Positions 1 through 45,490 of a stretch of DNA of 64,000 nt are shown here, piece after piece (positions within the stretch are counted from its first letter, which is position 1; each line of letters starts with the position of its first letter). The notes under the pieces are model-generated. The model was not told the origin of the DNA and ran no database searches. It was given only the letters and a program-made list of their open reading frames with translations. The stretch spans positions 24,054,709-24,118,708 of the forward strand of contig OZ316894.1 of the NCBI GenBank assembly GCA_973895155.1, read 5' to 3'. The position numbers were made by a program, and so were the translations under genes. This stretch comes from Marsupella aquatica (taxonomy: Eukaryota > Plantae > Marchantiophyta).

Positions 1-376
1 GGTAAGACAGATCGATAATCCAGAAACCACTGTGCTAGCTAGAAATTCAATGCCTTGAGCGCAATTGGCAGAATTGGAAACTGTGGAGCTCTCTAGGGTT
101 CGCTAATGTGAAACCTTGATCGACTGCTACCTCGGTCAACGGTTCCATAAGGTTATATAAGAAATCTTTAAATTTCCATTTCTTTTGACATGTCAGTCTC
201 TACCAAAGAGTTTGAAAATATAAGTCATGAACATAACGAAGATATCTTTTTGAAGCATCCATTTTCAAGCCAAATGCTGCAAAGTTAGTCTCAAAACTCA
301 GAACGTCATTGTAAATTTCACTACCCCGGCTGAGAAAATCGCTAAATTTGTTGAAAGCTGACTTGCACTTTGAACA

Positions 377-3300
377 GTGATACTGGCCTACAAGAGGACC
401 GAAGTGTTCATGTACACGTGGTTTCCGCTCGCCTTGGTTGTAACGATTATCAAAGACGGGGCTTTGGTACCCGCGGGTCTTGCTTATGTGGTGAGTTTCC
501 TTTTCTTACCTTTTGAAAGAAAGTTTCCATTTTCCAGTACCTTTGAGAAAATGGGCTCCTACATCCTGAAGTCGAAGAAATCGGGCTTAGATGTTTCAAT
601 GAAGAATTTTGAAAAGACTGGAAAAACGTTCTTATAGAACTTTACTCACCTCTTGTTGTCGCTCTGCTTTCCTTGCCCTCCGTTTTCCTTGCCCTCCTTA
701 TTCCAAAAAACCGATTTGCTATGTGGTTATCCACGACAGGCAGATGTAGTAGACGAGAAGCACCGAGCAGCAGCTATGGCCTTGGCCATCAGCGCCATCA
801 CAAGCGGTGTTCTAGTGGGAACAGGGCTTGCATATTTCTCCAAGGTGGACAACGCATTCTGGGTAAGTTGCTAGTCCCAGTTGTGAGTATCGATCATCCC
901 AACTTTAATTCAGAATGACACAGGGTGGACAGGTTTTTGCTTCTGTTTTATACTTGTTCAAGGACATCGAATGATACACCTACTACTTGTGGTCGACTAT
1001 TAAAAAACAAAACAAATGAAATTAAAACAATGAACATTTGGGCTACTAATTGAAGCTTGGTGTGGACAATTTCCATTCAGATTGCGGCGGGGCTTTACAT
1101 CTCAGCGGCAATCTATCTGCAGCTCTTTGTGAAAGAATCCAACCCAAGAATTGCTCTACTTCCCGCAGACCTATCATCACGCTCAGAGCTGACAGCGAAG
1201 TTGATATCAAAGCCTGCATGGACAAGACAATCTCTCAAACAATCTTTCCACTTTCTGGAAACTGCGAAGACTGTTTGGAGGAGGTGAGAATCCTAGTCTG
1301 GTTGTAAACTATGAGACAAGAAACCTAAACTTGCAATTGATCATGCGTTTTAATTTTTATATGAATATGCCGGATGCCTGCTTTGTGATTCAGTCCATGG
1401 CTGAGGACTCTAGCTTTGGTGGACTTCATGAACGGCTTTGCTGTATCAGGCGGTACGAGCTTTCTATTGGTACAGTTCTGTCTTCGCAGACCTGACCCGT
1501 GCACTTGGTGTTTCAACATGTGGCATTCGGCCTTTACCTAGAAAGCAATTACGCCGTTAACAGCTGTCTCTTCGTTTGATGTGCTCTTTAGTTAGTGTCC
1601 ACTTTTCAGATCTTGTATTTGTTTGTTTATGATGCAGTTTTTCTTAAAGGCTGCCTTCGGATTTGGAAAAGATGAATACTCCGTGATTGTTATGGCTGGG
1701 GCAGTAAGTGCTGTTGGTGGACAGGTAAGTTAAATGCCAGCTGGCCAATTTTGGAATGTTCGACTTAATATCTTGACAAGTTTGTCCAATTCAATGTGCC
1801 TACTTGGAGCTCGCCAGAATTTGATAAGAAATACAACGAGTCCCACATGCAAATGCTTCTCACAGGCGAATTGATTCAGCAGATTCTGATCCAATGATAA
1901 ATTTCCTTCCAGATGTTCATTTATCCAGCAATGGTTGATATCTTAGGTGAGCGACGGGTGCTCTGGATAGCTCTTCTAGGGACTGCTGGACAAGTGAGTG
2001 CCGTCCGTACCTGAAACACTGCCTGCTTGCCTCAATGTGTTTCAGATGCTCAATTTTTCTTCATGGACTTTTAAGTGAGCAGAAATTTGGATCGATTCGG
2101 TCTTTGGCAGATTCTAGTTTGCTCTCCTCTTGTATACCCACCAGTTTTCTGCACACAGATAGAGATGGAATGTGCACAGTGTTGATTCTTCTTGGATTTT
2201 CAATTCAGCACGTCGGTACTAAAACCTCTAGGCTGATACCTTCCAAGTACTCCTGCAATACTTTAATTACTCTTGTGCAATTGTGCCTCATCAACATGAG
2301 CTGAGCTGCTCTCCTGTTGCATTGCAGTATTTCCTCTATAGCTTTGCCTGGACGGGCTGGGTAGCCTATGCAGCAGCTGCAGCAGGGATATTTCCATCGC
2401 TTTTCCATCCAACTGTAAGTATTGTCGTAATGACTCCATAGCATTCTTTACCAACCTCTTAGGTGGCTGCATGTGACGTTCAACATTGATGCATTTTAAC
2501 GAACCAAATTGGTATCTTGTCAACCAGTGAAATGATTCACTGGACATGACTAAGATCTCTTTTAACTAGGGAGCCCATTTCAGATAAACGTCGCACATAA
2601 GTATTGCCACGCAGGCTTAACTTCGACGAGGAAACAAAGACTCTCAAATATTCTTGGTTAGCTTAGATGAAAACGTCCATTGATATTTGATGCATTTTGT
2701 TACAAAGGTAGCACAACTTACGTTCGTCCCATCAACAGACGTTTCCGAAAGAAAATTTCTTTTCCTAGGTACAGAAGCCACATTGGCCGTGATAACCATG
2801 CGACTGCACTGATATTAGAGCTTAAAACTGTCATCACAGCTCTTGCAATAAAAATCTGTTCCAAGGAAATCATAGTGAAATGCCATTTTGTCCATGATCC
2901 CCAACATAGACTACATCACAATGACCCTGTTATTGTGCAGGTTGGCACCATGGTGTCCAGAGGACTACATAATGATCAACAGGTACGGAGAGTCGTCAAT
3001 ACAGGAACCCAATCATGCAGTATTCCTGATAAATTGTGCTGGAAAAGCCCTCTCTTCGCTACACCAGGATGCATGCGGTTGAGACGATAGCTTCCAGACG
3101 ATCTCGCTGTTCAAGACCTGTCTTGGAGGGGGATGAAGTTCTCAAAATCTCTGGTATATCTTGGGGAGTTAAAAAATTTCAGTTGTGATGTTTTCTTGCA
3201 CTGCAGGGTAAGATCCAAGGTTTCATGGGTGGTGTGCGAGCAATGGCTGTGAGCACTGCTCCTTTGGTGTTGACACCACTGGCAGGTAAATCCAACTTCT

Positions 3301-4161
3301 ATCTTTGAGCCTTGGAGTTTGCGTATAAAGGTAAAATTAGAAAACTCTAATCAAAGCACAGATCCCACTATCTGTGAATTTATTTGATCTGCCAGAGAGT
3401 CACGTGATACTACTTGGCTGATTTCCTTGGCCATATGCTATTATGATCAACAAGATTGAATTCAATTTTCTGGTCTTTTGCGTAAACTTCCAGTCTTGCA
3501 GAAAGTTGACAAAGAAATTCCTCTTGACGGAACCTCTGCTGACTGGTGTTCGTGAAATAACTTGCAGCTATATCGTTGGTAGAAGATGCACCCTTCCGAA
3601 TGCCAGGATTGATTTTCATCGTTTGTGGAGCTGCTCTTGTAAGTATTTATCTTCAGCTACACCATATTTCAGTTAGTGCCTTGAGTGCTGTGTGAAAACC
3701 AATAACTGATTCTCCATTGAATGATTATTGTGCCTGTTGTTGGCATAACAGTTGCATGCGCTGGAATACAATTTTATATAAAGTAGAACAATATAACCAG
3801 GAGATCTTATCACAGTGACAGTCTGCACTTGCTGGAATTCAGACTGGTTCTGACGACTTTGTCTTAAGAATGCTCATCCGAATTAGTTGATCAAAACCTA
3901 CAAACAAGAAGACGAGAATGAGGTTTCATATCGAACCAATCGCTGTGTTCATTTCAGTGCTTAGACTTGCACGAGGCCTAACTTCTCTCTGAAACGGCTT
4001 CTGGCATGTAGGTGGTGTCATGGTTGATCTCGTTGGGAATGCCATCTCGGCCCCTACAGTCTACGGACACCCTTGAACAGCCCTATGTTCTGGACTATAA
4101 CATCGATTTCCAGGCACTTCCTCCAGATGCACGTCAAGAGGCCGTCAATAGAGTTCCCTGA
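377..4161 (+). CDS. MFS transporter, hippocampus-abundant-transcript/TetA-like; multi-exon, 5' exons lie upstream of the window
   Basis: GT-AG exons read manually at ~377-490 (ILAYKRTEVFMYTWF...LAYV), ~740-862 (ADVVDEKHRAAAMALA), ~1081-1283, ~1394-1452, ~1638-1724 (FFLKAAFGFGKDEY), ~1913-1993 (LGERRVLWIALLG), ~2328-2414, ~2941-2982, ~3207-3285 (GKIQGFMGGVRAMA), ~3569-3638 and ~4012-4161 (stop TGA). Motifs match plant HIAT1-like MFS proteins. The window begins at a GTAAG donor. Exon limits are approximate. Confidence 0.85.
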
Positions 4162-6289
4162 AAGCTTGAAAGCTGTATATGTCAACCAAATCTCTTACTC
4201 AATGTCTGTGGGATAGACGAAATGTCTTGAAATGTATAAGGTTATCTGTTCATAGGATGATCTTATTAGATGAAATCACGATTTCCTCCACATTTGTAGA
4301 GCACGCACAGGAATCACCCTAATCTCTTGCACTTGGGTCAAGTACGCACAATTCACCATCAAAGCTGTCGGTTAGGTTGTGCATTATGGTTGTGGCTCAG
4401 TTCTGCTTCAAGTCTCGGTGACCGTTTCACCAGGAATTACAGCTAAGTAGTATTGAATCATCTGGACATTGTACAAGTAAAGATACCGTTTTGCTGCTAG
4501 CAGAATGTGTAACTCAATCTAAGCTTCGAGAATCGTCTTAATGTTTGAGTCTGTCCCTCTAGTTGCCCAAACTGGCTCTACGCCATTCCTCGTGGGGGCC
4601 AAGGACCATCCACACGTCAATTGAATCTTTTCAATCCGACTCTGCTTGCTCAAGTGCTGCCCTGTATCATCCTAGCAGATCACCCCTGAAAGTATTATAG
4701 CCCACAGAACGGGTGGTTAAAATTGTATAGTTACTGGGAAACAAATTGTAGGCTTGCCAAGACTCTTGATTCAATGAATTGCATTGGTTCAGGCAAAAAT
4801 GTGGGTCTCCCCACTTTCCGTTGAATATATCAACACCCAATGGGGAGCTTTTATAGGTCCCCTACCCTGTCTGCCTCTCTAAAAAGGTTGGCTGCCCTTC
4901 TAAAGGTTGGGTGCTATAAGTGAGTCTAAACGCTGAGGTTCCATTGAGCCACAAAGGAATTATGGCCATAACTTTTTAGTAAGATTATGTATATATATAT
5001 ATATTTTGTTTTGTCAGTGACTAATGGTAATGACATACATAAGACCAATCCTTATCATGGCAAAAAGTTATGGACTGTGAATTTTGTGGTCAGTAACCTT
5101 TTGCATCCTTAACCCATAACTAGGGAGTTAAGTCAATCAAACTGTCAGCTTTGGAATGGCCTATTATGGATGGAATTGAACATGTTCTCAATCTGTTGAT
5201 GGACAAAACAAATGGTGAGAATGGGCAATCGACAGGACTGGTGATTTAGGGGCCATGAACCCTAAGGATTGATGCGGGAAGTTTGGGGACATGTGCCATT
5301 TCATGCTGCTAGAAGAACAACTAATGTTTCAAAGGGTGGGCAAGCAAAGTATATTGGAAGTTGGGACAGGGAAAGTACCGGCCCCAAGAAGGCTGGGGAG
5401 CCTTAACTAGGTGTTTATTTCACTAAATGTGGTCCCTCCCCTACATAGTGAGACATGGGGATATTAATACAATTGTGAACTGAATCTCCTGTTTTCTTAG
5501 CATTGGAAAAGCCTTGATTAAACACCAGTGTTTCCTAGATTTCTGAAAATCAAAATGGGCTCACTGAACTACGGTAGATGCTCAGATGGCCGTGAAATAA
5601 AACTGTGAATATTCATACAAAATAAAGTTGTTCTTCATATGTAAAAATGTGAACATTCATACTTAATAAAGTTGTTCACCAATAAGATAGCATTTCAAGA
5701 GGTTTTGTGCAAGTTTGGATGGTCCATATGAACCATCTTGTCAAATGTTCTGGTTTATGGGTACTTGAATTTCTACAGTAGTTCACTCCATCGCTAAGAA
5801 AAGTTACAAAGTAGGTAGGATTTGGGAGACATATGCTTAAGTTAGTAGACCCCCTTCTGAAAAACGTTTGCTTAATCAACCTCCTCGATACTTTTCTCTA
5901 ATCTGGACCATTGATGGACCTTTCAATCTCAGATCTGGACCATTGATAAACCTCAGGGGGTCCATCAAGTAACAAGTTTCATTTTGGGGGTAGATCAAGC
6001 AAATGCCTCTAGGATTTGGACATGTTTGAGATACTCTAAGGAGTGATTATTACTGTACCTCTAGTTTCAAGTCATAGATTACGACAGAGCTGAATCGAGT
6101 CAAAGGAAGCACTGTCCAGGGGTCACTCGCTAGGTGGCTTATAAAGCTTATGAGAAATTTCACTTGTGATTTTTCTTCTTCTTAATTTTTCTTCTTCATC
6201 TCAAAATTGTTGAAAAATTGTTTGGAATTAAAACTTTTTCCACCTATTCACCACCCTCACCGTAGTCTGATTAGCCAAGTGTTTATTTT

Positions 6290-25728: not shown

Positions 25729-28700
25729 TCAAACCTGGTCCTCATCCTCGCCTCCATTTGACACAATAATAACGTCAGGTTTTTCCGAGATAATGGAACG
25801 GGACCGTGGCACATACGGTATAACAATTGACCACTCTAGGTCTGGTGGGTACGGAATATAGAAACACTGCTCAAGGTGACTTGGGAATGTAAATGGTTCA
25901 GATGTTTGCCAATGAGATGGTTGAAAGCTAGTTGCTGATGTCTTCAGTCGAGTAAACCCACACTCATCAAGAAGTACCGTGCGATTATCACCAACCAGGT
26001 GAATTTTGAACCACTTACACTTGAAGATATACTCTTCAAATTTGGAATCGGCATCATAGGATATGATCAAGATCTCCTCAATCTTCCCATAGTGAGGCAC
26101 CACATCTCTGATCACATTAGTGTCATGACGGCTACTTTGTGAATCTTGCATGAACTGCCCTTGAACTCCACAATCAAAAGTTCTTCCCCTCTTCTCATCA
26201 AGGTCAGAAATCCTGAAATGCCTCCCTTGTGTCCACATTGCTGTTCTGGTTTGAACAAGTCTTAAAGGACCATGAACAATTGTTCGAACCTCAGGAGTCA
26301 TATCTGGAAAATGTGATACATTCTCACCTTGGGCCACCATAGCATCCAATTGAAGTACTTTCTCCTTCATATACTCAAGGAACTTTGGAAAGATCCTTGG
26401 GCGACGACTCTCCCTCTTTGCATCCTCATAAAACTCTCTCCAATCTTCCATCACATTGTTGTTACTCAACATGAAAGTACTAACCTGTGTCAACTCCACT
26501 GCGGTTAGTAAGCGTGTTTTTTTTGCACCTGTTAAACGGTCCTCCTCCACTTCCCTCTCTTCCATCCAAGTGCGTGGAAAACTAGGATCAATGGTAGCTA
26601 AGATGTTACTACAATAAAACATACTCTCAGCTGCCAAGTATCCAGTTGCCATGCTCCCCTCCACTCGTGCACGGTTCCGTACATAAGCCTTTAACACGGC
26701 CATATACCTTTCCAGCCAATACATCCACCTACAATGCACCGGACCGGCAATGGCAACCTCCCTCACAAGATGAACGAGAAGATGCACCTGACAATCAAAG
26801 AAGGAAGGAGGGAGGGCCTTCTCCAACTTGCATACCACCTCTGCTGCCAATACCTCCATCCGTGGTATCTCTTCTTCATATATTTCCTTTGAGCATATCC
26901 ATCTCAACAAAGTGCCCAGTGACCAAAGGGCGTCTTGCACTTCTTCACTCCCCAAACCTATGATTGCCACAGGAAGTATATGTTGTAGTAAACGATGATA
27001 GTCATGTGTCTTGAGATACATTGGCCATTTATGACTGTCCTCCATCCCAAAAGCCTTACGTAGATTGGCACCATAGCCTGTAGGAAACCGCATCTGCCCT
27101 ATGCGTTGTCGAAACTCTCTTCTTTCACCAACACTCAAAACCCATGGAGCTGAAGGACGATGTTCCATCCCTGTGGATTCATCAACTATTATCCATACAT
27201 CTGGATGTCGTTCTAGATCCTGGCATGCCTCCCTAAAATTAATGTTCTTTTCCCCATAAAAGTGCTTGATCAAAGCCTTCCCAACATTTCCCTCTATATG
27301 CATGGGGTCTAACAAGTGATGAATCTTCAACTCAGACCAATAGGGCAAAGTGGCCAGTATACCCCACCTTGTCAATCCACTACCATCAAATCCCATGGCA
27401 TCTTCAGGGTCTGCCACCCTATCAGCTATGGACTTCCAATACGAAAATGTGGTGCGGTCAGGTATCTCACGCTCATCACCATTGATCATGTCAAAGTCTG
27501 AAAACAAAAGGGGGTCAGACCTCATGTGATGCCCAAGTGGAAGAAACTTGGTATGACCAAGGTAGATTATCTTGTGCAGCCATTTTGAGTACTTGGCCAT
27601 ATCGTGAAGGCTTGGACCACAAAGTGGAGCATGCCTTGTACCCTTGAGTTTGGAACCCAGAAACAAACCCAAACCCTGCTCACAAAATAACATTCTCAAT
27701 TAGAGTCAAAGGAATTGAAAAGTTCATGTACATAGAATTAAAGAGGGACTTCCTTCCAAACAAACTTGATCTCCAATACATGAAAAAAATACAAATCCAT
27801 ACCACTCACCTGGATAGTCATGCATGGTCCACATAATGATTCCCTTCAATTGGAAGACACGTGGTAACCCTCCTGTAGTTGTCCGATCATCATATGCCCA
27901 TACACCCCCCCATAATTTATGGAGTTCCCCAACCAAGAGCGCCAAGTAGGTGTCCATGTTTTTTACCTTAGATGGACCTGGGATAATCAATGATAGCAAT
28001 AAGAATCCCTTTTTCATGGACAACCATGGGGGAAGGTTGTAATTCATAACAACCACCGGCCAAACCGAAGTAGGGCGCCCTTTCCCTCCAAGGGAGTGTG
28101 GGCTTACCCCATCTGATGCCAACCCCAACCTCACATGACGAGGGTCACGTGCAAATTCTGGCCATTGTGACTCCACATGCTTGTGAGCAGGGGAATCAAC
28201 TGGCAACCGCATGACACCGGCCTCTAATCGATGTGTCTTATGCCATACCATCAATTCTGCCAAGTCAGAACATCGGTACATGTGCAACAATCGAGGAATA
28301 ATAGGAAACCAACGAACAGCTTTTCTAGGCACCTTTGAGGTCAACATGTTGGTTTCATATCGAGGCTCTTGACAAATTGGACACTCAGTTGCGTTGGCAT
28401 TGGTCTCATGATAGAGAATGCAGTCATTCACACAAGCATGAATGATATGGTATTCCATGCCAATGGATGATAGAACCCTCTTTGCCTCCTTCCAAGTTCC
28501 TGGCAACACATTTTCACTAGGTAACAAGAGATCATGGCAAATTGCAAACAAATCCGATAGTAGCGCATTGCTTGCCTTGTGTTTTGCCTGAAGATTCATC
28601 AATGCCAAGATGGCAGATAGTCTATTCAAACGAGCACCCCCATAAATAGGTGTTCTAGCATGTGCCTCAGCTTCTTCCCATTGTTTTTGTCCTTCAGGTG

Positions 28701-28999
28701 TACGTTGAGGCCTTGGATCATGTGCAACATTTGGTGGAGGGTCTCCTTCATTGGGTGGGACACCTCCTTCACCACCAATGTCTACACCAAACCAATCTGT
28801 CATGAAGTCATCCATGGCTGACTCTTGGTCTTGCATGACCTCATAATCTGTCCGAGGTGCCCCTTCATCTGGACTGTCATTATCATTGTCACTTGATGAG
28901 GAATCTGCTGATGATGTTTCCCCGTCTTGTGGCAAGCCCATTTCTTGATATGTAGCTCTCAACCTCCTTGGCAACATATCTTGACTAGGCCGCACATTC
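25729..28999 (-). pseudogene. EnSpm/CACTA Tnp2-type transposase (Transposase_21 + DUF4218 + DUF4216-like)
   Basis: IHACVNDCILY, CPICQEPRY, WFPIIPRL, RHVRLGLASDG, YNLPPW, HDYPG, LDPMHIEGN, KTHDYH, PPSFFD..VHLLVHL, WMY.LERYM.VLK.YVRNRARVEGS, YGKIEEI, FKCKWF. Intron ~27677-27808 and an apparent frameshift just after it. Confidence 0.93.
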
Positions 29000-33835: not shown

Positions 33836-35747
33836 ACGCATTCATACCATTTTGAGATTTTAGAGTCTAGGCGGAGGACCCTAAGGGCAAGCATTCCAAC
33901 ATAGGTCAACGCCCACATTCGAATGCCAAGGCAGAGCACCCAAACTGCTTGCACTCAAGTGCATGCAGCCCACCTTCATCCACTAAATAAAGGTGAGCAC
34001 GATAATTGTGGTTGTGATGACCAATTGCAGGAAGATTCCATTCTTGAGAAGAGGAGGAAGGATGCAGACAGGAAGAGATTTGAGTACCAAAGGAGCAAGC
34101 GCTCTGTTCCAGAAGACGGTGTAACTCCCAACCAAAAGAGAAGGTGCATTACAATTGTGTTATCAGATATAGTTAGGTACATTTTGGAGAAGACCGCTAC
34201 ATTCAATGTAGGTGCAAGGAGGGCAGTACTATCTGGTATCTGGTTGCACAAATACTTGAAGAAGTACCAGCCTACAAGACTAGGTTTGCCTAAAATGGAT
34301 TGGGCTGTAGCTGCTGCATTATAACACGATTTCGGACCGACCGAGAAGTGTGTCGGAGTTCTCGTTTAGCCCGATCCCATTTTTTTTCTAAGGCAATGCA
34401 ATGACCGATAAAACTGGCAAAAACTCTCCAAAATGCCACTTTCCTCCATTGCATCGCCGCGGGAATGTAGGGAGCGATACGTGCATCGGGTTTTACATTC
34501 CATCAGTGAAAAAGTCCAAACTACGAGGTCCAAACCGCATAATCCAGGAACGACCACGCACTAACCCAGGTAAAGGGGAAACTTAACCATGGTTAAGGGG
34601 AAATTAACCATGGTTTAGAGCGTCTCCTATATAAAGAGGAGCGGGCTGCCCATAAAACGTTTGCTTTCGCCAGAGCAAATATCTCTTGACTGAGAGCGAA
34701 TACCAAACTCCCATCGAGTCTTACATTCCTCCCAAGCGATTCGACTCTTTCTACCGAAAACCCGATAAATTTATCGGAACAACCATTCCTGTTCAAGTTC
34801 TCCATGTAAGACTAACTAGTCATTTAGTGTAAAATGTCCAGATCTGAACGGACTACGATAAATTTATCGCATTCTGCATTCCTCTGTTGCAATCATTTGA
34901 TCCAGTGTTTAGAGAGGTGTTGCCTTCATTCCGATAAATTTATCGGAGTCTTCATTCCTTTCATGGAAAGAGGAGTAATTGAGAATCCGATAAATTTATC
35001 GGAGTTATCATTTTTGTGAAAGATTGAATTCAGGGCTTAGGTGTCTGAGGAAGTCATATTTTCAATTCGAATGCGGAGTGCGATAAACTTATCGCATCCT
35101 CCTGTGAGAATCATTTTCCTTTGTTTTGTTTGGAGACTCATCTTCATCTCTGATGTCACAGTGTTGCCGGGTTTAGGAGGCACAACGGAAGGTCGATTGC
35201 ACTCCGTGGACAACAGGTATTGTGACAAATGGCTGTCTTCCATGTATTGTCAAACATGCATGCCGGTTGTACAAGAGACTTGTGCGACTCAAAGTTCTCC
35301 CCATCGGTATAGGAGCATTGTGGATGGGTGGTACTGATCCTGGAGATAGGCAGAATCCTCTCCGCATTGAATTTATGGAATGAATGATGCAGGAGTTCCA
35401 ATTCGTTCGAGGTTGATGTTAACGGCGTGTTTACATTCTTTGGAGTTTTCTTGTAACTATTGTTGTCGTCGTCTTGACAACAAGTACCACAAATAGGCTC
35501 ACTTCTGTTGTAAGATTTGGAACGAAGACCCTTGGGTGAACCTTTCACGATGAGTGTTTTGACCTTTGCATTGAGGCGCGTCTTGTAAGGACATATTTAA
35601 ATAAACAAGTCCTACCCTTGCGCAGCGAATATAATACGTCACGAGTCCTAATCGTTAAACTGTCGTGCAGGGTTGGTATTGTGGATGTGTTCGGTTACAC
35701 CTGGTGATTGAAGGTATTTTTATTGGTGGTTTTGGTAGCTCTGCTTC

Positions 35748-36290
35748 ATGGCTGCGTCGGAGAATCTAATCGTTGCAAAGATGGGATCCGTTTTAGCCCA
35801 CGAGCGTAGGAAATATATTCGAGGAAAAGTGCTCGGTGTGGAATGTGGAACTTTGTTGAATGGACTTCCCGATCAACTCATTGAATCTCACATTTGGCCC
35901 CTCCTAGCCTTGTCTTGCACACAAGATGAACACCTTGGCCTTGACCTAAAACTTCTACCAGAAGAACGACTGACTCGAATGAGAACAATCATTTGTCTTG
36001 GAGCCACCTCAAAGAAATGGAACCATCTTGTTGTTGGTACACGATTTTGGGCGCTATTGAAATATGCAGTCCATGAGATCAATGACATAAACAAAATGCT
36101 TGCAAGCATTCCTAATGCCGACCTTCTCTCAAACATACATATTGCTAGGGTCTTCCAAGAGGAAACTCATTTCCTCCCTCCCATAGATATGCTTGGGTGC
36201 TTTTTGTATGAGCAGTTAGATCAGTTTCGTAGAGTTTGGATAAATCTTGGAGAAAGTGGGAAGCAGACAATTCTTGCATGGCATGGATGA
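35748..36290 (+). CDS. F-box-like protein (cargo of the Sola1-like element)
   Basis: Intact 180-aa ATG ORF with LNGLPDQLIESHIWPLL ... LGATSKKWNHLV, matching the two ends of the F-box signature with an insertion between them. Confidence 0.55.
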   Translation: MAASENLIVAKMGSVLAHERRKYIRGKVLGVECGTLLNGLPDQLIESHIWPLLALSCTQDEHLGLDLKLLPEERLTRMRTIICLGATSKKWNHLVVGTRFWALLKYAVHEINDINKMLASIPNADLLSNIHIARVFQEETHFLPPIDMLGCFLYEQLDQFRRVWINLGESGKQTILAWHG

Positions 36291-36859
36291 GTCTGAGTGG
36301 ATGAGGCATTGCTGTGAACATCCGATAAATTTATCGCACTCCTCATTCCTCTAGTCGATTTTGGGTGCTCTAAGGTTTGCTCAAGAAGAGCTTGTAAAGA
36401 AACACTTTGAATGTAATTGACTCTGCCTCCCCTGACTTCGGGTGGTGTGGTCCAGAGTGTATTTGTTTGCGCCTCTTTGGACGATTAGCTGACAAGTGCA
36501 TTGGCTTCACAGCCCGTTATACAAGGTACTGTAAAGTTGGATGAAACTTGTAGAATTGTAATTAGTATGTTCTCCAAAATTTATTCCTGATTTCTATTCG
36601 GTGATCAGACCATGCTCGAGCGACGCATTTTTGTACCCTACTTGGATCCTCCAGAATGGGGGAATGGAGCCATGCTGGACCAGCTAAGAAGGCTGGATGA
36701 GTCACTAATTTTAAAGATATGCAGGCTGGTAGTAAAACCATAATGCATTTCACTTCTACGTAGATCAGGTACGGGGAGAAATTTATATTTGGTGGGATAG
36801 ATATGTTGGATTTTCTAGAAGAGTTATCCTACTCTTTCTGAAAACCGGTGTAGTAAGAC

Positions 36860-38805
36860 ATTTTATACTCGACTGCTGTCATGTTGTGAAGAGCAATCCT
36901 GCTTATGATCCAGAATTCTATGCCGACAATAGACGTAGAGCATTCGATGAGATTCAGGATGTGATTGACGAGCTGGACAATCCTCTTGCCACCGAGTTTT
37001 TTATTGACACTGGTGGGAAACTATATTCATACAAGATTCGTCAACTCCCCCCCAGCCGGTCTGTGCGCTCTTTAACTTGATCTATGTAAGTTGCCTGTGG
37101 ACGAACGTCCTTGCCAATGGTGAGATCTGTCCATGCTGCACAAATGCTTGTTGTGACATTCCGTCCGCCAAGGTGAAGAAACTATTTTTGCAGATATCTG
37201 GTCAGCCAGATTGGGCAACATGCAGAGAAATGTTTCCCAACGAAACAGATGTCTCGGTCCTTGGCATATGGGCGGAGAAATTGAGTGACGCGGTAAGCAT
37301 TCCTCTCACAACATGCTCTATCGCGAGATTTTTATCAGCTTTAGCATTCCTTTGTTGGTTTCTAAGCGATTGCATCTATCAGCTAGCGTGCTCCATCGCA
37401 AGATTTTTATCGGCTTTAGCATTCCTTTGTTGGTTTCTAAGCGATTGCATCTATCAGCTAGCGTGCTCCATCGCAAGATTTTTATCGGCTTTAGCATTCC
37501 TTTGTTGGTTTCTAAGCGATTGCATCTATCAGCTAGCGTGCTCCATCGCGAGATTTTTATCAGCTTTAGCATTCCTTTGTTGGTTTCTAAGCGATTGCAT
37601 CTATCGGCTAGCGTGCTCCATCGCGAGATTTTTATCGGCTTTAGCATTCATCTCACGCTATTCTAACTGTAGATGTGTCTGACATTTTTACAGCTGAAGA
37701 TTAATTTAAAAAGGAAAAGCAAAGTGGTTCCGGCTGTCACTTATAATTCTGCGGGGGAGGTTATTTTTCCCTCAGCTGAAATCCCTTATGTGTTTAAGAA
37801 TTTTGTGCTTGCTGCAATCGATAAGTACAATCGGCTGAGGTCCTTAGGCGAGGGCACAGCAGAAGCGTTTGAACAAACATGGAAAAATGCAGACGGGGAT
37901 TCTTTTCCCTACTATCTCCATGTTGGTGATGTTCGAATTTTGGATTCTTTTGTTCAGCCAAGGGCTTACACCCTTGTGGTTGCGGATATTCCGTATGGTT
38001 TTAATGCTCCTGGTTCGGAGTTTGATGAAGTGGCCTTCACAGAAAAGGACATTTTAGACATGTTGACAAGTTTCTCAAAGATGACGACCGCTAAGTAGTG
38101 GAGGTTTGTTGTGATCCATTCACTACAACAAACGCATATGGTGATGTCTGCATTGGACAGTGTATGCAACTGTGGGTCGAGGCTGGAATCTGGGAGAAGA
38201 CTAACATTCATGAGCGTCCCGCTGGAGCTCGATTGGCGTGGGGTTTTGAGAACTGGTCGATAGGTTTCTATAGCGAGGAAGGCATTCGGAACATGGACAT
38301 GTACAATTTCCAACCGGATGAGTCTCACGTCAATATCATCAAGGTTCCATGTGTAACCAAGAAGTCCGTTGATCCGTTGGGATTTGTTGTGAACCCGTAT
38401 CAGAAGCCTGTTGGTTTGGGGGCTTGGTTTGTTTCCCATTTTTTTGAGAAAGAGGATTGGGTTATTGATCTTTGTTGTGGAACCAGATTGACATTAGCTG
38501 CTACGCTCCTCAATTCTTGCCAGGGTTGTGCTGTTGATAAGAGTTCTACGCAGATTGATTTTGTGAAATCCCGGATCATGATTCTGGAGTCAAACTGGAA
38601 TTTATATGAAGAATCCCAAATTGAAGGGCACGGCATTGAAGGTCATGAGATTCAACCACCAATTGCAGGCCAATTGGGTGTTCTCGGGACATCGACTTAC
38701 ATAGTTGAGGTCGTGAAGGAGACCGAAGAGGAACAAGAAGAAACTAAGGAAGAGCCTCCCAGAACACCAAATGAGGATGATCTCAACGACATGTTATTAG
38801 ATTAG
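36860..38805 (+). pseudogene. Beta-class N6A/N4C DNA methyltransferase-like gene (cargo of the Sola1-like element)
   Basis: GDV..LD, LVVADIPYG (motif IV, DPPY-like), IWEK.N...FE.W.IG, NPYQKPVGL, WVIDLCCGT..T.AA...G.AVD (motif I): beta-class order. Introns ~37086-37192 and ~37292-37693. One stop (38096-38098) and a frameshift. 5' end uncertain. Confidence 0.8.
37314..37650. repeat. 75-bp tandem repeat x ~4.5 inside the MTase intron
   Basis: Unit gctccatcgcaagatttttatcggctttagcattcctttgttggtttctaagcgattgcatctatcagctagcgt. Each unit carries a cg/caagatttttatcg variant of the element palindrome. Confidence 0.95.
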
Positions 38806-39139
38806 TTGCGTGTGCTCGTTAGGATAATGTCAATCACCAATGGAGTTGTCGATAAATTTATCGGATTCTGTATTCCATGAGGAAGAACCTTGGTCACCTT
38901 TATTAATGCAATAAATTTATTGGACTTTGCATATATCAGACTGTCGCGGTGTTCTAGCTGGGGAATGGAGTTGTCGATAATCTTATCGGACTTAGCATTG
39001 TATGCTCTAATTGGTTTGTCATTGCAATTATTTCAAAAAAAAAGATATCATTATAGCTGCGAAGTACATAGTCCCAGAACGATAACCACTATACATATTC
39101 ATGGGAACGATAACCATTATAACTTAAACCTGCAACTAG

Positions 39140-42100
39140 CTTCGACTATCAACGACTACAGTCTCCATTGCATTTTGAATGATTCGTCTTGTTTGTATAG
39201 GGAGAGTACTATTTGCCAATAACACAAAGTTATACGCATAAATGGCAGTTCTGCTAGGGACAATTCATCCTCCAGTACTTTTTTAGACGAAGCCTCTTTC
39301 TCCGGATAATATCTGCCTTCAATTGCAGACTCTTCCTCCAAATCCATTGCATACCAAGTGATTTTAATCCGCTCCGGGATGTCGTTAATTCTTGTGAGAA
39401 TCTCAGTCACTTTTGCCATCCAGAATGGTCTTCCCTTGGGATCCTGATGGGCTGCTACACATATCATTGCAAATTTAGTATTCACCTCTAGATCCTTGAG
39501 GTCTCCAATTTCCGTGACTTTTCTTCCACTTCCGGAATACATGACAGTCCTCACACCCGCTACTTTATCAACCAAGCTAGGTTCCATTGCTGCTTTTGTA
39601 GGATTACTCAGAAGTTCTCTCTGTACGTTTACCTTGGGCCAACTCCAATCAAAACTCCATTGTGCAGGTTTCAGGTGGTGCTGAATCGCTTCTTTTTGTT
39701 TGTCAAAAAAACGACCCCACCATAGATGATCTTTGTCGTCAAAGTAATTGAATCCATCTTCAATTGCTCTTCGATATTTTTGAAGAGTTGACAAATAACT
39801 TTGAGCCGCCCGCTCATCTTGTTCCTCAGCATCATTCTCTTGCTCTTCATTGTCTCCTGTCGCTCCCGTGGCCGACTTCAATGCCATTTGTGGTGCGACC
39901 CACATTCCAGATGATGGAATGTACCGAACAAAATCCCCCGTCTCCCCCCAATCGGTTGTCGTTGAAAGATGTTTGGCATGGAATACGGACCGAGCACTTC
40001 CATCTTCGAGTACTCTAGTAATCCAAAATTGTTTTTGAGCACTTATGTCGTGGAGAGTACGTAGAACCTGACCATCCATATCCTTGTCATTTGCTTGATC
40101 CTTGTCTGACACAAATTTCTTGAAATCGGCAACCTCGTCGACAAAAAATATCTTTGCCATAGGATTGTAGGATTCCTCTATGATTGCTGAAAGAGTGTCC
40201 AACCGGAAAGCTTTCCGCTTGTTCAATTTTGAAGAAAACTTGCTAAACATTTGATCAATTTGATCATGGGTGTGCCCCACCAATAGGAAACCAACCTTTA
40301 TTTTCTGGAAAACACCTATCTCCACCAACATATTCAAATATGCCATAAGATATTTATTCTTGTTTTCCCGAGCTTTGTTATCAGGCTAGAAGTAAAGCAC
40401 TGGAGGGAGCAGACCTTCCCAGGTATTCAAAATATGCTGGATAATGTGGATGGTCAGGTTGCTATCATTGTGAATATTTGGATAGTTCAAAAAAACATTT
40501 GAACTTAATTGTTTGTTGAAGATCAAACAACCCACTACGTGTACGGTGATGAAATACTTTTCATCCATATTCTTCAGACACCGAATGAAATGAGGTAACT
40601 CTATCTTCTTTTGATCCATTCCATCAATACAGATGCCCAAATATTTCTCCGGACTCTTGTAACATTTCATCCGGTGCTTTGCTAACTTCTCCCTCTCGAC
40701 TGCTTGTGCCTTCCGATGCTCGTTTAGCAATGTTGAGAATTTTCCTACAATAATAAAAATGTTTAGGACAAAACATGATAATAGCAATGTTGAACCCTGA
40801 CAGCGATAAATTTATCGGGTTCAGTATTCAAATACGAGACCGTAATGATAAACCCTGACAACGATAAATTTATCGGGTTCAGTATTCAAACACAAGACCG
40901 TAATGAAAAACTGTGACAGCGATAAATTTATCAAGTTCAGTATTCAAACTATTCAAACGATATATTCACTCACATGGCCAAAGAAGAAGCACATGAATAC
41001 TCAACCCGATAAAATTATCGGGAGTAACACACAGGTTTAGAAACTTACTCTTTTCTGCTTCGAGTGTTGCCTTATCACAGAGTGCTTTGAATTCAGTACA
41101 CGGGGTGCAGGTGGAGAAACGGCTCCTTTTGGGGATGCGCACGCGAGGAAACTCCTTGTTCCAAATGCGAACAAACCACGAATATGTCATGCCTTGTTCT
41201 TGGCGCATTAGAGTTTTGGACTGGAAGGCATCAAAAACTTCTGTTTTTGTCCAATTGTCAGGTAAATGAAAGATATCCTTGTTGGGGAGACTCTCGACAT
41301 TTGTGGAAAAAAAATCATCCAACCATTGGACGAGACCAAGATATGCGGGTGATTTTTCTCGACAAACTGTACCGATCTGTATCCGAGAAAACATGTTCTG
41401 CGAGATTTTTTGGAGACGATTATATCCTAGTGAAAATAATTTCTTAAAACCACTCCAACAAAAGGATCTACCGCTAACTGAGTAACCACTTGCACCAACA
41501 TGCCCACCCTTCACCCATCCTCTTAGAAGGACGTTCTTCTCTGGGTAGGATAGCCCATAGTAATAAGTGCGTTGTTTCGTCACGGCTAGCAGACCCAAAT
41601 TTCTCAGACAATAATTATCACAACACAAATACTTATGAATTTCTCTCATTTTATTTCTATTCAATTTGTCATTTATCACATTGTCTTTCCTCAGTAATTC
41701 GGTCCCTATCTTTTTTACTAGGCTCATTTGACTTCTCTACAGCCTGAAATCCGTTCATAACATTGGCATTTTTGGGTCCTTCAGGTGCCTCGCGAATAGA
41801 TGCATCACTCTCTACTGAGCTACCATCCTCTATAGATCTCCTTGACGCATTTAGAGGGGCACTGAATAGACGACTATAACTATTCTCTTGAATCGATAGC
41901 TCCTTCTAAACATTCAGACACAACTTGTGCTATTATATCGGATTCTCTATCTCCTTCCTCATCTTCGTCCTCCGATGCACTCGACTCATCTGAAAACACA
42001 ATTGGACTCCGTGGCTCTCTATGCATAACCTGAACGCCACTAAGACCTCTCCTCAATACTTGGAGCCTGGAACCAATGATAGTCCGCCCTTGAGAACTTG

Positions 42101-42731
42101 GAGATTCTGGATTTGCACGTGCAGTCCCAACGACTCCGCGAGCTGCTGGAAAATTGATCACTTGTTCACCACGATTCCCACGGACCATTCGAGAAAGGGC
42201 TGAGTCTGGACTTTGCAGTCCGATTCCCTCGCTTGCTCGCACATCCAATCCAGGCAATGCAAAGACCGATCGTCATATCCGTCTTTGTATTTTTGTGTCC
42301 CAATCCTCACCCGGAGACTGAAAGATCCATCGTTGAACTTGTGTTGAATGTGGTGACTTGAATGCCGACTACGATACGCGTATCGGTCGCCGGATACCCT
42401 CTCCATAACCCGGGATGGATGGCCTGAAGCGACGTCTCGGACCTAAACCTGGGATTGAAAGTTTCTCATTTCTTGGCGATGGAATGCTCAAGAGACGACG
42501 CTTCTCAGGTTTACTAGGCGACACATAGTAAGCACTGGGCTCAGGACCAGAACTTGCATCAGAATCTGAGTCAGAGATTTCGGGCACTATTTGCTGTGAG
42601 AGAGGTAGAGCTTTAAGTATGCGACTTGGCAAACAGCGAACGACAAGATTAGGAGATGATTCCACTGAACTGGAAGGTGAATCTGTGTCTGATTGAGACA
42701 TGGCTATCCGAGACACTATGGGGCTTTGCAT
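39140..42731 (-). pseudogene. Sola1-like (DUF7869-type) transposase, disrupted
   Basis: CC...C, C...FKKL, ESLPNKD..HLP, F.RIW..EFP.VRIPK.SRFSTC..C, IDGMDQKK..LPHF, LYF(Q>stop).DN..RENKN.Y.MAYL..LVE.GVF, GFLLVGHTHDQIDQMFS. Intron ~40746-41048. Low-complexity N-terminus with frameshifts. Confidence 0.8.
40790..40950. repeat. 58-bp tandem repeat x3 in the transposase intron, one CGATAAATTTATCG per unit
   Basis: aaccctgaca.cgataaatttatcgggttcagtattcaaa.ac.agaccgtaatga repeated. Confidence 0.92.
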
Positions 42732-42987
42732 TCCTCCCGCAATCAGGGAAAACGAAAGGCTCAACGGACATAATGTTGCTCCAAGAACACAACTCCCAAA
42801 ACTCTACTCTCGATAATGACGCCAAAGACTTATCGGCGGTGGCCCTTTTATAGTGTCTGTTGAGGGGTTGGCCCATGTGTTCACTTTTGATTGGCTGTCA
42901 CCCTAAACAACAAAATAGCATAAAATGGTATATTTCTTGGATTTCCAATTTCATTCTCACACGTGCATCGTGGCAAAATTATATAGT

Positions 42988-43135
42988 TTTGAAATTGAAG
43001 CGATAAATTTATCTGATGTTGGTATTGCAAAAGTGGTTCCTTCATATGGAAGTTGCAATTTGAAATTGAAGCGATAAATTTATCTGATGTTGGTATTGCG
43101 AAGAGTTTTCTTCATATGGATAGGAATTTTGAAAT
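42988..43135. repeat. ~70-bp tandem duplication with palindrome variant upstream of the Sola1-like transposase
   Basis: tttgaaattgaagcgataaatttatctgatgttggtattgc...cttcatatgga x2. Confidence 0.85.
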
Positions 43136-44439
43136 TTAACCGATGAACCGAAGGATCTTAGTATTGTCGACTTGTATTTTTGTCGCCCGTAGTTTTCGCG
43201 ATAATTTTATCGGACTGCGCATTGCTGTTGAAAGAATGGCATGTTGACTATGGTCACTTGCGGAGGTAACTGGTCAATTGCGGAGGTAACTACAAGGTAA
43301 GTTTGACGAACCGTGCAGTAATTCTTATCGACTGTGATGTAAAATATTTTTGGTAAATATCCAAAAACTAAGAAAACTAAGATTGGGTCAGAGCTTTCAT
43401 GGCTCAAATCCGGAGTCCGATACAGTTATCGCACTTGGCTCGAAACGTGGATATGGATTTATAGATAAGACCTTTCATATATCTTCGGAGAGCGTGAATA
43501 TGAGGTTGAGGAGAAAGTTTTTCGGATCTAATTGTTCCTTGATAATATGAATGTTTGTTAGCATGAATTTCATTGGTTTTGATCATTATTAAATTTGCTG
43601 TTTCAATCCGAACTCCGATATGAATTACATTATTTCCCCAAAAACGTGTTTTTGATGAAAAAAACTGTCGATTTCGTGAGATTCGGCGAAAAATGAAAAT
43701 ACACTTCTCGTTTAGAGGAAATAGTTCTCGTTTGGTCCGAAATCGTGTTTTATGTGATGTGAGGAAAACCTTGAGCATAGTGAAGCAAAGGAAGCGCAAA
43801 GACCATCTTGCTGCAAAGTACCAAGTTTTGTCAGCACTTGTAGGAAAGACATGTGTAGATAGAAGGCAACAGACCTCTCTAGCTCAAGCTTTGGGTATAC
43901 AACGGCAAAATCTTCATAGGGCATCTAAGATCAGGATGCAGATTTATGAAGATCGTGAAAAAGCTTATCCTATGGGGGAAAGAAAGGTACGTCGAGATAA
44001 GATTTTTGATGAAGTTCGAAAACAGGTGGAACACTTTTGGGAAACCCACACTCGGATTTCTCCATGTAAGAACAATGAAGCCAGATTGCGACTAGGGCGG
44101 AAAATGTATGAAACACATCAAGTGCACTGGCTGGAGGATACACAGGTGAGAAATTCTCCATGATTGATTTGCCACTTTTGATTTTAACTCATAATACGAT
44201 CTGCAGATGTTGAGAAGTAGTTTTCCTTCATGTGTGCTTTAGCCATTGTGCTTTGCTATAACCGCCTAGTTTTTTCTTTAAGGTAGGATCTCAATAATTT
44301 TGTGAGACCTGACGTCCTATATAGCCTAGCAGGAAGGACTCTGTTCCAGGAAAATTCCTTCAGGAAGCACTGTTGAATCCTTGTCAAGTGAAGTCTGGCA
44401 TGAGACGAGTTGAGTCCTTGGCAAAGTACTATCTAGTTA

Positions 44440-45490
44440 ATCACTAAGGACTATATAGTCCTTGACTCAGGAGTATGGATAGCAGTGAAGTCCTTAGTCA
44501 AAGGACTTTACTCCTTGGATAAAAACTATACTCCTTTGCCCAGGACTATATAGTCCTTATCAAAGGACTTTACTACTTTCTAAAGGACTATAGTCCTTTC
44601 TAAAGGACTATTAATAGTCCTTACTCAAGGACTTTACTGCTTTGTAAAGGACTATAGTCCTTACTCAAGGACTTTACTACTTTGTAAAGAACTATGGTCC
44701 TTTCTCAAGGACTTTACTCCTTTGTGAAGGACTATTAATAGTCCTTACTAAAGGACTTTACTACTTTGTAAAGGACTATAGTCCTTTCTCAAGGACTTTA
44801 CTCCTTTGTGAAGGACTATTAATAGTCCGTACTAAAGGACTTTACTACTTTGTAAAGGACTGTAGTCCTTCCCCAAGGACTTTACTCCTTTGTAAAGGAC
44901 TATAGTCCTTTCTCAAGGACTTTACTCCTTTTAACAGGACTACTAATAGTCCTTGGACTTTACTCCTTGGTACGGGCTTTCGTAAAGGACTATAGTTCTT
45001 ATTCTTTCAAGAACTGTAGTCCTTTCTCAAGGACTTTACTCCTTTTAAAAGGACTACTAATAGTCCTTGGACTTTACTCCTTGGTACGGGCTTTCGTAAA
45101 GGACTATAGTTCTTATTCTTTCAAGAACTGTAGTCCTTTGTAAAGGACTATAGTCCTTACTCAAGTGTTTACTCCTTTGTAAACGACTATAGTACTTACT
45201 TAAGGACTTGACTCCTTTGTAAACTAAGGACTATTTGAAGTACTTTACTCCTTTGTCGAGGACTGTCTTTAGTCCTCATCCGAGGACTATGTAGTCCTTC
45301 GATAAGGACTTTAATCCTTTGTAAAAGACTATAGTCCTGGGTTGTGTTACGTCTATAGACTAGTCCTTTGTCAACGAGTGAAGAGCTTTGACCAAATGAT
45401 TGTAGTAGTCCTCCCCGATGGACTTTAGTCCTTAAGCTTTGCTGGTAGTCTTCCAATGAGGATTCCAACCCTTGCTGAAGGACTTCAGTC
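44440..45490. repeat. ~1-kb intronic array of palindromic AAGGACTATAGTCCTT alternating with AAGGACTTTACT(C/A)CTT
   Basis: Dozens of aaggact/agtcctt half-sites, with higher-order duplications (e.g. ~44910-45025 vs ~45025-45140). Lies in the intron starting GTGAG at 44146. Confidence 0.95.

Follow-up and report, generated by a model that had tools for sequence, protein, structure and literature searches.

The 64,000-nucleotide stretch of the Marsupella aquatica genome analysed here (contig OZ316894.1; hereafter, the window) contains a decayed copy of a three-gene DNA transposon with a DUF7869 transposase, whose non-coding DNA carries many copies of a 14-bp palindrome, CGATAAATTTATCG. The motif is real, occurs far beyond chance expectation, and is explained neither by passive duplication nor by simple subterminal sites. 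We tentatively favour the reading that the palindromes are operator- or parS-like docking sites for a dimeric protein encoded by the element, which would regulate or mark the element that carries them.

A palindrome confined to the non-coding DNA of one transposon

In a motif scan of the window, CGATAAATTTATCG had 8 exact matches (shuffle mean, 0.00) and 17 copies at ≤2 mismatches (shuffle mean, 0.14; shuffle maximum, 2), and all 17 were located at 34763-43431. Of the 19 matches obtained at ≤3 mismatches, 18 fell inside the element, with 37624 as the additional site, and one lay outside, at 340. Fifteen CGAT-N6-ATCG dyads were found inside the element and none outside, and all 18 units of the form TTATCG-N7-YATT were inside, compared with 2.7 expected under a uniform distribution. 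The initial annotation had reported about 17 copies confined between the terminal repeats; at ≤2 mismatches, its count, coordinates and confinement were correct, as was its placement of the copies at the left end (5), in the spacer between open reading frame 1 (ORF1) and the methyltransferase gene (1), in the convergent 3' spacer (3), in the transposase intron (4) and at the right end (4). None of the 17 copies overlapped a modelled exon, and they were grouped in five clusters as follows.

34763..35094, + strand: cluster A, five copies (34763, 34856, 34932 and 34988, exact; 35081, 1 mismatch)
36323..36336, + strand: cluster B, one exact palindrome between ORF1 and the methyltransferase gene
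38850..38988, + strand: cluster C, three copies (38850, exact; 38909 and 38975, 2 mismatches) between the convergent methyltransferase and transposase genes
40745..41048 (transposase intron): cluster D, four copies (40804, 40862 and 40920 in 58-bp tandem units; 41007 in opposite polarity)
43001..43431, + strand: cluster E, four copies (43001, 43072, 43199 and 43418)

Cluster A is located upstream of ORF1, 440-758 nt from the left end of the element, and cluster B begins 33 nt past the ORF1 stop and ~290 nt before the putative methyltransferase start. Cluster D is 2729-2932 nt from the right end, while cluster E precedes the transposase ATG by 298-728 nt and is separated from the right end by 318-735 nt, its first two copies (43001 and 43072) being within 71-bp repeat units. 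Overall, 8 of the 17 copies were 2.0-4.9 kb from the nearer terminus, that is, at least 2 kb from both ends.

The palindrome forms part of a larger unit. A YATT(CC) box was present 6-8 nt to one side in 15 of the 17 copies, and on the + side in 13 of those; the extended motif is longer than 14 bp and polar (asymmetric). The polarity of TTATCG-N7-YATT was toward the + strand in 13 of 18 units, including two of the three in the minus-strand transposase intron. Two cluster C copies are flanked by GGAATG-N7 on the left and YATT on the right, yielding near-palindromes of ~40 bp. Related units were also observed beyond the five clusters, including CGATAC-type variants at 34475 and 42372 (a third, at 43418, belongs to cluster E) and a degenerate set that is absent from the initial annotation, namely five TATC[GA]-N7-CATTC matches at 37333-37633.

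34395..34488: subterminal half-site units (TTATCG-N7-CATT on the − strand at 34395; CGATACGTGCATCG followed by N7-CATTCC at 34475)
37314..37649, + strand: 75-bp tandem repeat of 4.5 units in the methyltransferase intron, with one degenerate copy, CGCRAGATTTTTATCRGCTTTAGCATTCC, per unit
42372..42385: CGATACGCGTATCG, a CGATAC-type variant inside a transposase exon

Conservation between clusters was restricted to the motif. Across 111 between-cluster pairs, identity was 0.91 for the core and 0.50 for positions +1..13, while both the 30 nt to the left and positions +14..30 were at the random level, 0.27. Since only the core and the YATT box are kept between clusters, the palindromes were not carried along in larger duplicated blocks. 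The initial annotation had proposed that flanks as conserved as the motif would indicate passive duplication only, and this comparison went in its favour. Its remark that some variants look like CpG deamination is plausible: both CpGs are altered in CAATAAATTTATTG at 38909, and the differences from the family were mostly transitions, as shown by the 398 places listed for run X2 (A>G, 86; T>C, 88; C>T, 50; G>A, 50). At 34855, one variable place (A>G), the family consensus G turns the cluster A copy there into a 16-bp palindrome, GCGATAAATTTATCGC.

The host element and its three genes

The palindromes are carried by an element with the following limits and genes.

34319..34322: target-site duplication TTAT, left
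34323..34357, + strand: left terminal inverted repeat (TIR), whose first 16 nt, AACACGATTTCGGACC, are the same as at the right end
35748..36290, + strand: ORF1, ~180 aa, weakly F-box-like (Pfam E 0.075)
36612..38805, + strand: methyltransferase gene, putative exons 36612-~36728, ~36819-37292 and 37694-38805
39145..42703, − strand: transposase gene (DUF7869, PF25273), ATG at 42703, last exon from 40744 down to ~39150
40745..41048, − strand: transposase intron of 304 nt (GTAAGT...TGTAG, in-frame join), holding cluster D
43715..43749, − strand: right TIR
43750..43753: target-site duplication TTAT, right

The 16-nt sequence AACACGATTTCGGACC occurs without mismatch at 34323 (+) and 43734-43749 (−), and these were the sole two matches in the window at ≤3 mismatches; the TIR arms are 35 nt long and 83% complementary. 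Once 34323-43753 is removed, the flanking reading frame (33905-34322 and 43754-44163) is continuous for ~275 codons without a stop. The element, 9,427 bp long, thus inserted cleanly, with duplication of a 4-bp target, into the reading frame of another repeat or gene, whose two halves had no convincing Pfam match. A 4-bp target-site duplication is characteristic of the Sola1 group, and both TIRs and such a duplication are present here, with a clean empty site. The 'Sola1-like' label of the initial annotation is putative; DUF7869 is the only Pfam family that the transposase matches. No convincing counterpart of the TIRs was found in the 74 related loci described below at ≤4 mismatches. The last 50 nt at the termini contain, in addition to the TIR, a different repeated word, TTCTCGTT/ACGAGAA, and all three window copies of TTCTCGTT are inside the element. 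A single inverted copy of the 8 bases that open the TIR core, CGATTTCG (43738-43745), is present at 43669-43676, ~60 nt inside the right end; otherwise this word is found in the window only in the two TIRs. Near the left end, at 34562-34617, a 22-bp tandem repeat of ~2.5 units includes one copy (34583) of another 14-bp palindrome, TTAACCATGGTTAA; the inner 10-mer of this repeat, AACCATGGTT, is seen again at 34606, and the repeat is directly upstream of TATATAAAG at ~34630. This arrangement may serve the plus-strand genes as a promoter element.

In the run contigs of organisms A and B, the whole element was covered by 2,915 and 3,763 pieces, respectively, at very high summed depth, and internal-deletion forms were found with the joints 35108->42824, 34778->38942, 39023->40952, 41061->42304 and 37299->37619, several of which are ~15-35 nt from a palindrome copy. 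The many contigs, high depth and deletion forms indicate that the element family is abundant and young. Summed depth, a poor measure here, was minimal over the methyltransferase region and higher in the bins holding clusters D and E.

A Pfam scan of 10 element reading frames of ≥70 aa returned DUF7869 and otherwise only weak matches, with no VANC. The two DUF7869 matches (E 6.2e-31 and 1e-08) flank an in-frame TAG at 40386-40388, and the reading frame shifts near 39250; homologues read through both. The transposase had 79 database homologues, the best with 66% identity, and all were unnamed. A full-text literature search returned no paper on DUF7869, and none of 22 pattern matches to viral transposase relatives was confirmed. 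The N-terminal region of the transposase has invariant cysteines. Residues 221-295 of the transposase model aligned to winged-helix domains, including RFX, with Z 7.2, below the caution line of 8 (VIA-align), and the N-terminus gave no Foldseek match at E≤0.001.

The methyltransferase gene is spliced in frame at 37292/37694, and its last exon (37694-38805) shows the beta-class order, with ADIPYGF (motif IV) followed by VNPYQKP and DLCCGT (motif I). Decay is evident from an in-frame TAG at 38096-38098, a 1-bp deletion at 38173, which is not common to most family contigs, and a poly-C length change at 37046. The gene's own decayed pieces had no Pfam match at E≤0.1, and the label 'MTase' given in the initial annotation is supported via homologues of the last exon (47-73% identical), 28 of 30 of which contained PF01555. 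A search of the window piece against solved structures gave weak S-adenosylmethionine-motif matches alone (E 0.39-0.82), a sequence search of one homologue, P0086, gave none at E≤0.01, and the NCBIfam search of the methyltransferase gave nothing useful. ADIPYGF, VNPYQKP, DLCCGTG and an acidic tail ending in D(L/M)NxxL are conserved across both clades considered below, and a basic KRKRK stretch stands at the start of the last exon. The motif IV tetrapeptide in this family is DIPY, DVPY, DFPY, DAPY or DIPH, not DPPY. The long acidic tail (38700-38805; homologues P0080-P0100) has a conserved D(L/M)NxxL(L/M)D, which is also retained in the sister clade (DMDTLLAM), and resembles an acidic activation motif.

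For ORF1, no homologue was found among 98 candidates, and atlas leads alone were obtained (0.90-0.91). The 'F-box' label in the initial annotation therefore remains weak, with a Pfam E of 0.075 and an atlas lead of 0.90 behind it. Two F-box-like stretches were noticed, LDESLILKICRL in putative methyltransferase exon 1 (36612-36728) and LPEERL...SKKWNHLV in ORF1 (35748-36290). A transposon-borne F-box protein would be a candidate for steering a host factor to degradation.

Related palindromes in near-clade elements

Metagenome contigs were scanned with the transposase alignment, which yielded 74 related loci totalling 350,663 nt. Exact CGATAAATTTATCG was absent from these loci, and only one match was found at ≤2 mismatches. 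Most of the longer loci had palindromes of their own; such palindromes recurred in 22 loci, 19 of which had a CGATA or CGATG inner half-site. In the near clade, where transposases are 55-65% identical to that of the window, CGAK-N6-MTCG palindromes occupy the same transposase intron and 3' spacer as in the window element. Twelve such sites were present in 4 of 5 loci, 3 in the intron immediately preceding the final exon of the transposase and 9 beyond the stop; all 12 were non-coding, and several had GGAATR/YATTC flanks. These included GCGAGACCGGTATCGC-type dyads in L001 and L002, TCCGATACCGGTATCGGA in L007, and a single dyad with a CATTCC box in L004; L003 had no near-clade dyad, except one degenerate unit recognised by eye. 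The palindrome centre and outer bases change in step at all positions of one element, and position and architecture are conserved. A more distant locus, L011 (transposase 42% identical), has an outlier palindrome, CTCCATGATATCATGGAG, at 662-740, 1919-1995 and 3412, and one of its copies precedes the last transposase exon by 41 nt.

Central arrays and a ParB-like::methyltransferase gene in the sister clade

Elements of the sister clade, with transposases ~36% identical to that of the window, have a dyad one base wider, CGATR-N4/5-YATCG, often extended to 23-45 bp and arranged in 40-50-bp tandem units with 5-25 copies. Among the 12 sister-clade loci with both neighbour genes, all 60 dyads were located in the spacer between divergent gene starts (11,921 nt), and none in the other 85,469 nt; at least one dyad was present in 11 of the 12 loci. 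The spacer separates the transposase gene from a gene encoding a ParB/KorB-like::PF01555 methyltransferase fusion, and the array abuts the start of the latter's first reading frame (ORF-X, 570 aa), which is located across the array from the transposase and is followed on the same strand by the methyltransferase exons. In L014 and L047, ORF-X ends at GTAAGT or GTGAGT and is followed by a conserved 45-codon mini-exon (AG...GTATGT) and by the methyltransferase exon after AG, all in frame; this splice chain indicates that ORF-X and the methyltransferase constitute one gene. A methyltransferase exon of the sister clade matched PF01555 with E 2.2e-09.

The AlphaFold model of ORF-X was moderate, with a mean predicted local distance difference test score of 58.5, and 70-88 in the conserved half. 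Its best Foldseek matches were Noc, ParB and KorB, followed by sulfiredoxin (top 9, E 3.4e-4 to 1.6e-3; probability 0.98-1.00; ~290 columns), and GGSHSAEARRQL stands at what we take to be the position of the ParB arginine-rich box. A profile search of 1.84 billion representatives retrieved 584 ORF-X relatives at E≤0.001. PF01555 followed the ORF-X-like part in 6 of the 17 long relatives scanned, and the methyltransferase parts of ORF-X relatives were ~31-33% identical to the near-clade enzyme. The ParB-like::methyltransferase fusion is thereby supported by independent gene predictions.

Element ends were sought in the longest sister-clade contig, L019, where only a complex repeat field was found, so that terminal palindromes are possible there. 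This contig has a field of long (100-216 nt), mutually inverted repeats at 1-4300, upstream of the methyltransferase gene. In L019, L023, L033, L040, L046 and L047, the transposase N-termini have tandem peptide repeats, SLDSRISV(D/E)xY or FS(I/V)EEY.

Proposed docking sites for an element-encoded protein

We propose that the palindrome is the window lineage's version of a two-fold-symmetric site, with the half-site CGATR and halves about one helical turn apart, an arrangement that is the signature of a dimeric duplex-binding protein. The observations behind this proposal are the confinement of the motif, the conservation of its core alone, its placement and, in the sister clade, the adjacency of the arrays to the ParB-like::methyltransferase gene. 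A clade of elements with DUF7869 transposases would keep the dyad in its non-coding DNA, and an element-encoded protein, bound as a dimer, would be recruited to every spacer, resulting in transcription control and/or DNA marking of the element. From here on, the identity of the binder and the consequences of binding are what we infer. The palindromes of the sister clade may be bound by the ParB-like part, in the manner of ParB, Noc and KorB at their own sites. In the window lineage, the binder would not be an element-encoded ParB-like domain, because the ORF-X-like part is missing there; candidates are the methyltransferase protein, with its basic N-terminus and acidic tail, a ParB-like protein acting in trans, and the transposase. 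By analogy with KorB-OB on RK2 and VANC-motif arrays on VANDAL, the outcome would be self-regulation or self-marking of the element. The docking-site reading accounts for a strictly element-private motif located far from the ends.

Several points weigh against this proposal. The best-supported candidate for the binder is missing from the window element itself: the ORF-X profile had its best match among 1,264 window reading frames at E 1.8, outside the element, and hhalign comparison of ORF-X with the window element gave probabilities of ≤0.3%. The survival of the same half-site without the ParB-like part would point to a binder common to both clades, that is, the transposase or the methyltransferase. 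The structural matches of ORF-X had low template modelling scores (0.33-0.40 to target) and were obtained with a moderate model, and its only Pfam match was DUF6551 (E 0.035). The first proline of (D/N/S)PP(Y/F/W) is replaced throughout the methyltransferase family, which makes catalytic activity uncertain. Small beta-class methyltransferases usually read 4-8 bp, not a 14-bp dyad. The window copy is a pseudogene. Finally, only 2 of 361 places in 34745-35105 varied at ≥8% in the motif-versus-flank test among family copies (runs X2 and X3), and core versus flank conservation within organisms A and B is uninformative because the family copies are too alike.

A more elaborate scenario, which we regard as doubtful, is that this clade of eukaryotic cut-and-paste transposons, one family of which is represented by thousands of contigs in plant-type genomes, adopted a prokaryotic ParB-methyltransferase cassette together with parS-like palindromes. 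A ParB-like clamp would load at the array and carry the fused methyltransferase along the element, leading to self-marking, and the window lineage would have lost the clamp and spread the sites into every intron and spacer, with the enzyme thereby still able to act on the element in full.

Transposons managing their own chromatin are represented by very few cases, of which VANC is the textbook example, and the element described here would be a second, independent design. Its features are a dyad site, an amino-methyltransferase conserved over deep divergence and, in the sister clade, a predicted ParB/KorB-like fusion with an array at its promoter. If the pairing of sites and protein is true, it would open sequence-targeted methylation of adenine or N4-cytosine in eukaryotes to direct testing, and a bacterial partition/operator module would be at work in a eukaryotic mobile element. 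Where the dyad CGAT-N6/7-ATCG is found in non-coding spacers, it can be used in annotation as a signature of the clade.

Alternative explanations

The main rival to the docking-site proposal is that the palindromes are binding sites of the transposase, subterminal and internal ('enhancer'), with the CGATR half-site read by its N-terminal domain; we consider this possible, if rather unlikely. The transposase is one of just two proteins common to both clades, and its invariant N-terminal cysteines and weak winged-helix-like segment (residues 221-295; Z below 8) would suit such a role, although its N-terminus lacked a Foldseek match at the threshold given above. Clusters A and E are 318-758 nt from the two ends, the half-site units are 72-165 nt from the left end, and the deletion derivative 35108->42824, found in two organisms, keeps exactly clusters A and E. 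However, the TIR and the terminal word TTCTCGTT, with 3 of 3 copies inside the element and in the last 50 nt, differ from the palindrome, and 8 of 17 copies are at least 2 kb from both ends. In the sister clade, moreover, 60 of 60 sites lie between the divergent gene starts, while the 1-5 kb outer flanks hold none. The initial annotation had argued that the internal copies are not what simple subterminal transposase sites predict, and this argument is supported by the distances of the internal copies, from the different word and TIR in the terminal 50 nt, from the near-clade palindromes in the same intron and 3' spacer (12 of 12 non-coding, in 4 of 5 loci), and from the central position of every sister-clade palindrome, with none in 85,469 nt elsewhere.

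It is unlikely that the palindromes and the GGAATG/CATTCC boxes are enhancer or promoter modules for conserved host transcription factors. Copies are indeed found <1 kb upstream of the putative ATG of each of the three genes, the sister-clade arrays occupy a bidirectional promoter region, the half-site core is constant across clades while the flanks change, and a second fixed box, YATT(CC), stands at 6-8 nt in 15 of 17 copies. However, the remaining 54.6 kb of the window, with several other transposons and genes, lacks the motif, and the polarity of the extended motif (13 of 18 on the + strand) is independent of gene direction. The concerted change of centre and outer bases at all positions of an element is a better fit to an element-encoded partner than to a fixed host factor.

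Somewhat less credible still is a functionless residue of minisatellite-like tandem duplication and repeat-mediated recombination in a young, abundant element. Several copies are in 58-, 71- and 75-bp tandem units, contig joints are located beside copies (e.g., 34778->38942 and 39023->40952), depth was higher in the bins with clusters D and E, although this measure is poor, and motif and flanks are equally invariant within organisms A and B. Between clusters, however, the core and YATT box alone are common and the flanks are random. Related palindromes are present in the same intron and 3' spacer of relatives whose transposases are 55-65% identical, and the CGATR dyad persists where transposases are ~36% identical.

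Hairpins or cruciforms in RNA or single-stranded DNA, serving as a processing or termination signal or as a small-RNA source, are very improbable overall, and a hairpin function in the window lineage is unlikely: most window copies are in introns or likely untranslated regions, and the sister-clade palindromes are long and fold strongly (-12.5 and -21.8 kcal/mol; z -7.9 and -10.5), but the window copies fold weakly (-2.5 to -4.1 kcal/mol; z +0.18, -2.69 and -1.56), no Rfam family reached its gathering score in 34000-45200, and the sister-clade arrays are at gene starts, not ends.

Surroundings in the window

The rest of the window is a patchwork of plant-type transposons comprising a CACTA tnp2 element with DUF4216/DUF4218, a long interspersed nuclear element with zf-RVT and DUF4283, and a Helitron Pif1. 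Just outside the element is an unrelated palindrome array of AGGACTATAGTCCT and its variants, interleaved with AAGGACTTTACTCCTTTG, with 21 copies in one block at 44502-45432 compared with 0.25 expected in the window. The block resembles a subterminal repeat field belonging to a different transposon, perhaps the CACTA element with its transposase at 25729-28998, and shows the classical subterminal pattern, unlike the dispersed CGATAAATTTATCG copies.

Comparison with known systems

The window element lacks one defining feature of each known system that it resembles: it has no VANC gene and no ParB gene, and its sites extend beyond the ends. The 12-bp TnpA motifs of En/Spm and the hexamers of Ac occur as many short copies near both ends, in both orientations, and the protein that binds them, encoded by the element, also influences promoter activity and methylation. 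Those motifs are within a few hundred bp of the ends, whereas 8 of the 17 copies here are at least 2 kb from both ends.

A prokaryote-type amino-methyltransferase on a mobile element, proposed to manipulate the epigenetic state of that element, has parallels in two reports: retrotransposons with Dam-like methyltransferases (bioRxiv 10.64898/2026.05.21.726589) and Mariner elements in giant-virus genomes with other methyltransferase families (PMC3627910). No PF01555 enzyme, ParB-like fusion or cognate palindrome array is described in the available parts of either source, and a term search of the preprint returned no mention of palindromes, Sola or PF01555. Nor did our literature search turn up any DNA transposon that carries a PF01555 enzyme, a ParB-like fusion or palindromes of this cognate kind; it covered neither Repbase nor the 2009 description of Sola, where a note on a Sola1 methyltransferase is possible.

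VANC21 binds a family-specific motif that is arrayed in tandem repeats in the introns and the intergenic and terminal non-coding DNA of VANDAL21 (PMC5735166). The likeness consists in a short motif that is enriched in one family, non-coding, multiplied in tandem and different between related families, and in an accessory protein reading that motif, which is encoded by VANDAL (PMC5735166) and is likewise proposed to be encoded here. The VANDAL motif is a 9-nt asymmetric word in one orientation (PMC5735166), in contrast to the 14-16-bp dyad of the present element, and VANDAL is Mutator-like, whereas the window element has a DUF7869 transposase. The VANC gene is absent here, the accessory gene being a PF01555 methyltransferase, with a ParB-like fusion in the sister clade. 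For VANC, binding and methylation loss were demonstrated experimentally (PMC5735166), whereas the corresponding roles in the window element are predicted.

The closest prokaryotic parallel is provided by ParB, Noc and KorB, whose sites are ~14-16-bp palindromes, often clustered, near the gene of the protein (PMC11790492). On plasmid RK2, the ParB-family clamp KorB is loaded at palindromic OB sites, from where it can silence distant promoters; the promoters of the mobile element that encodes it are thus controlled from sites both near and far (PMC11790492). These systems are prokaryotic, in contrast to the intron-bearing eukaryotic transposon described here, and, unlike ParB, Noc and KorB, the ParB-like domain of the sister clade is spliced to a DNA methyltransferase, while the window element lacks it. 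Nevertheless, a clustered palindrome of ~14-16 bp on the same element as the gene, as in ParB-parS-type sites, was found both in the window and in the sister-clade array, and the best structural matches predicted for the sister-clade ORF-X were Noc, ParB and KorB themselves.

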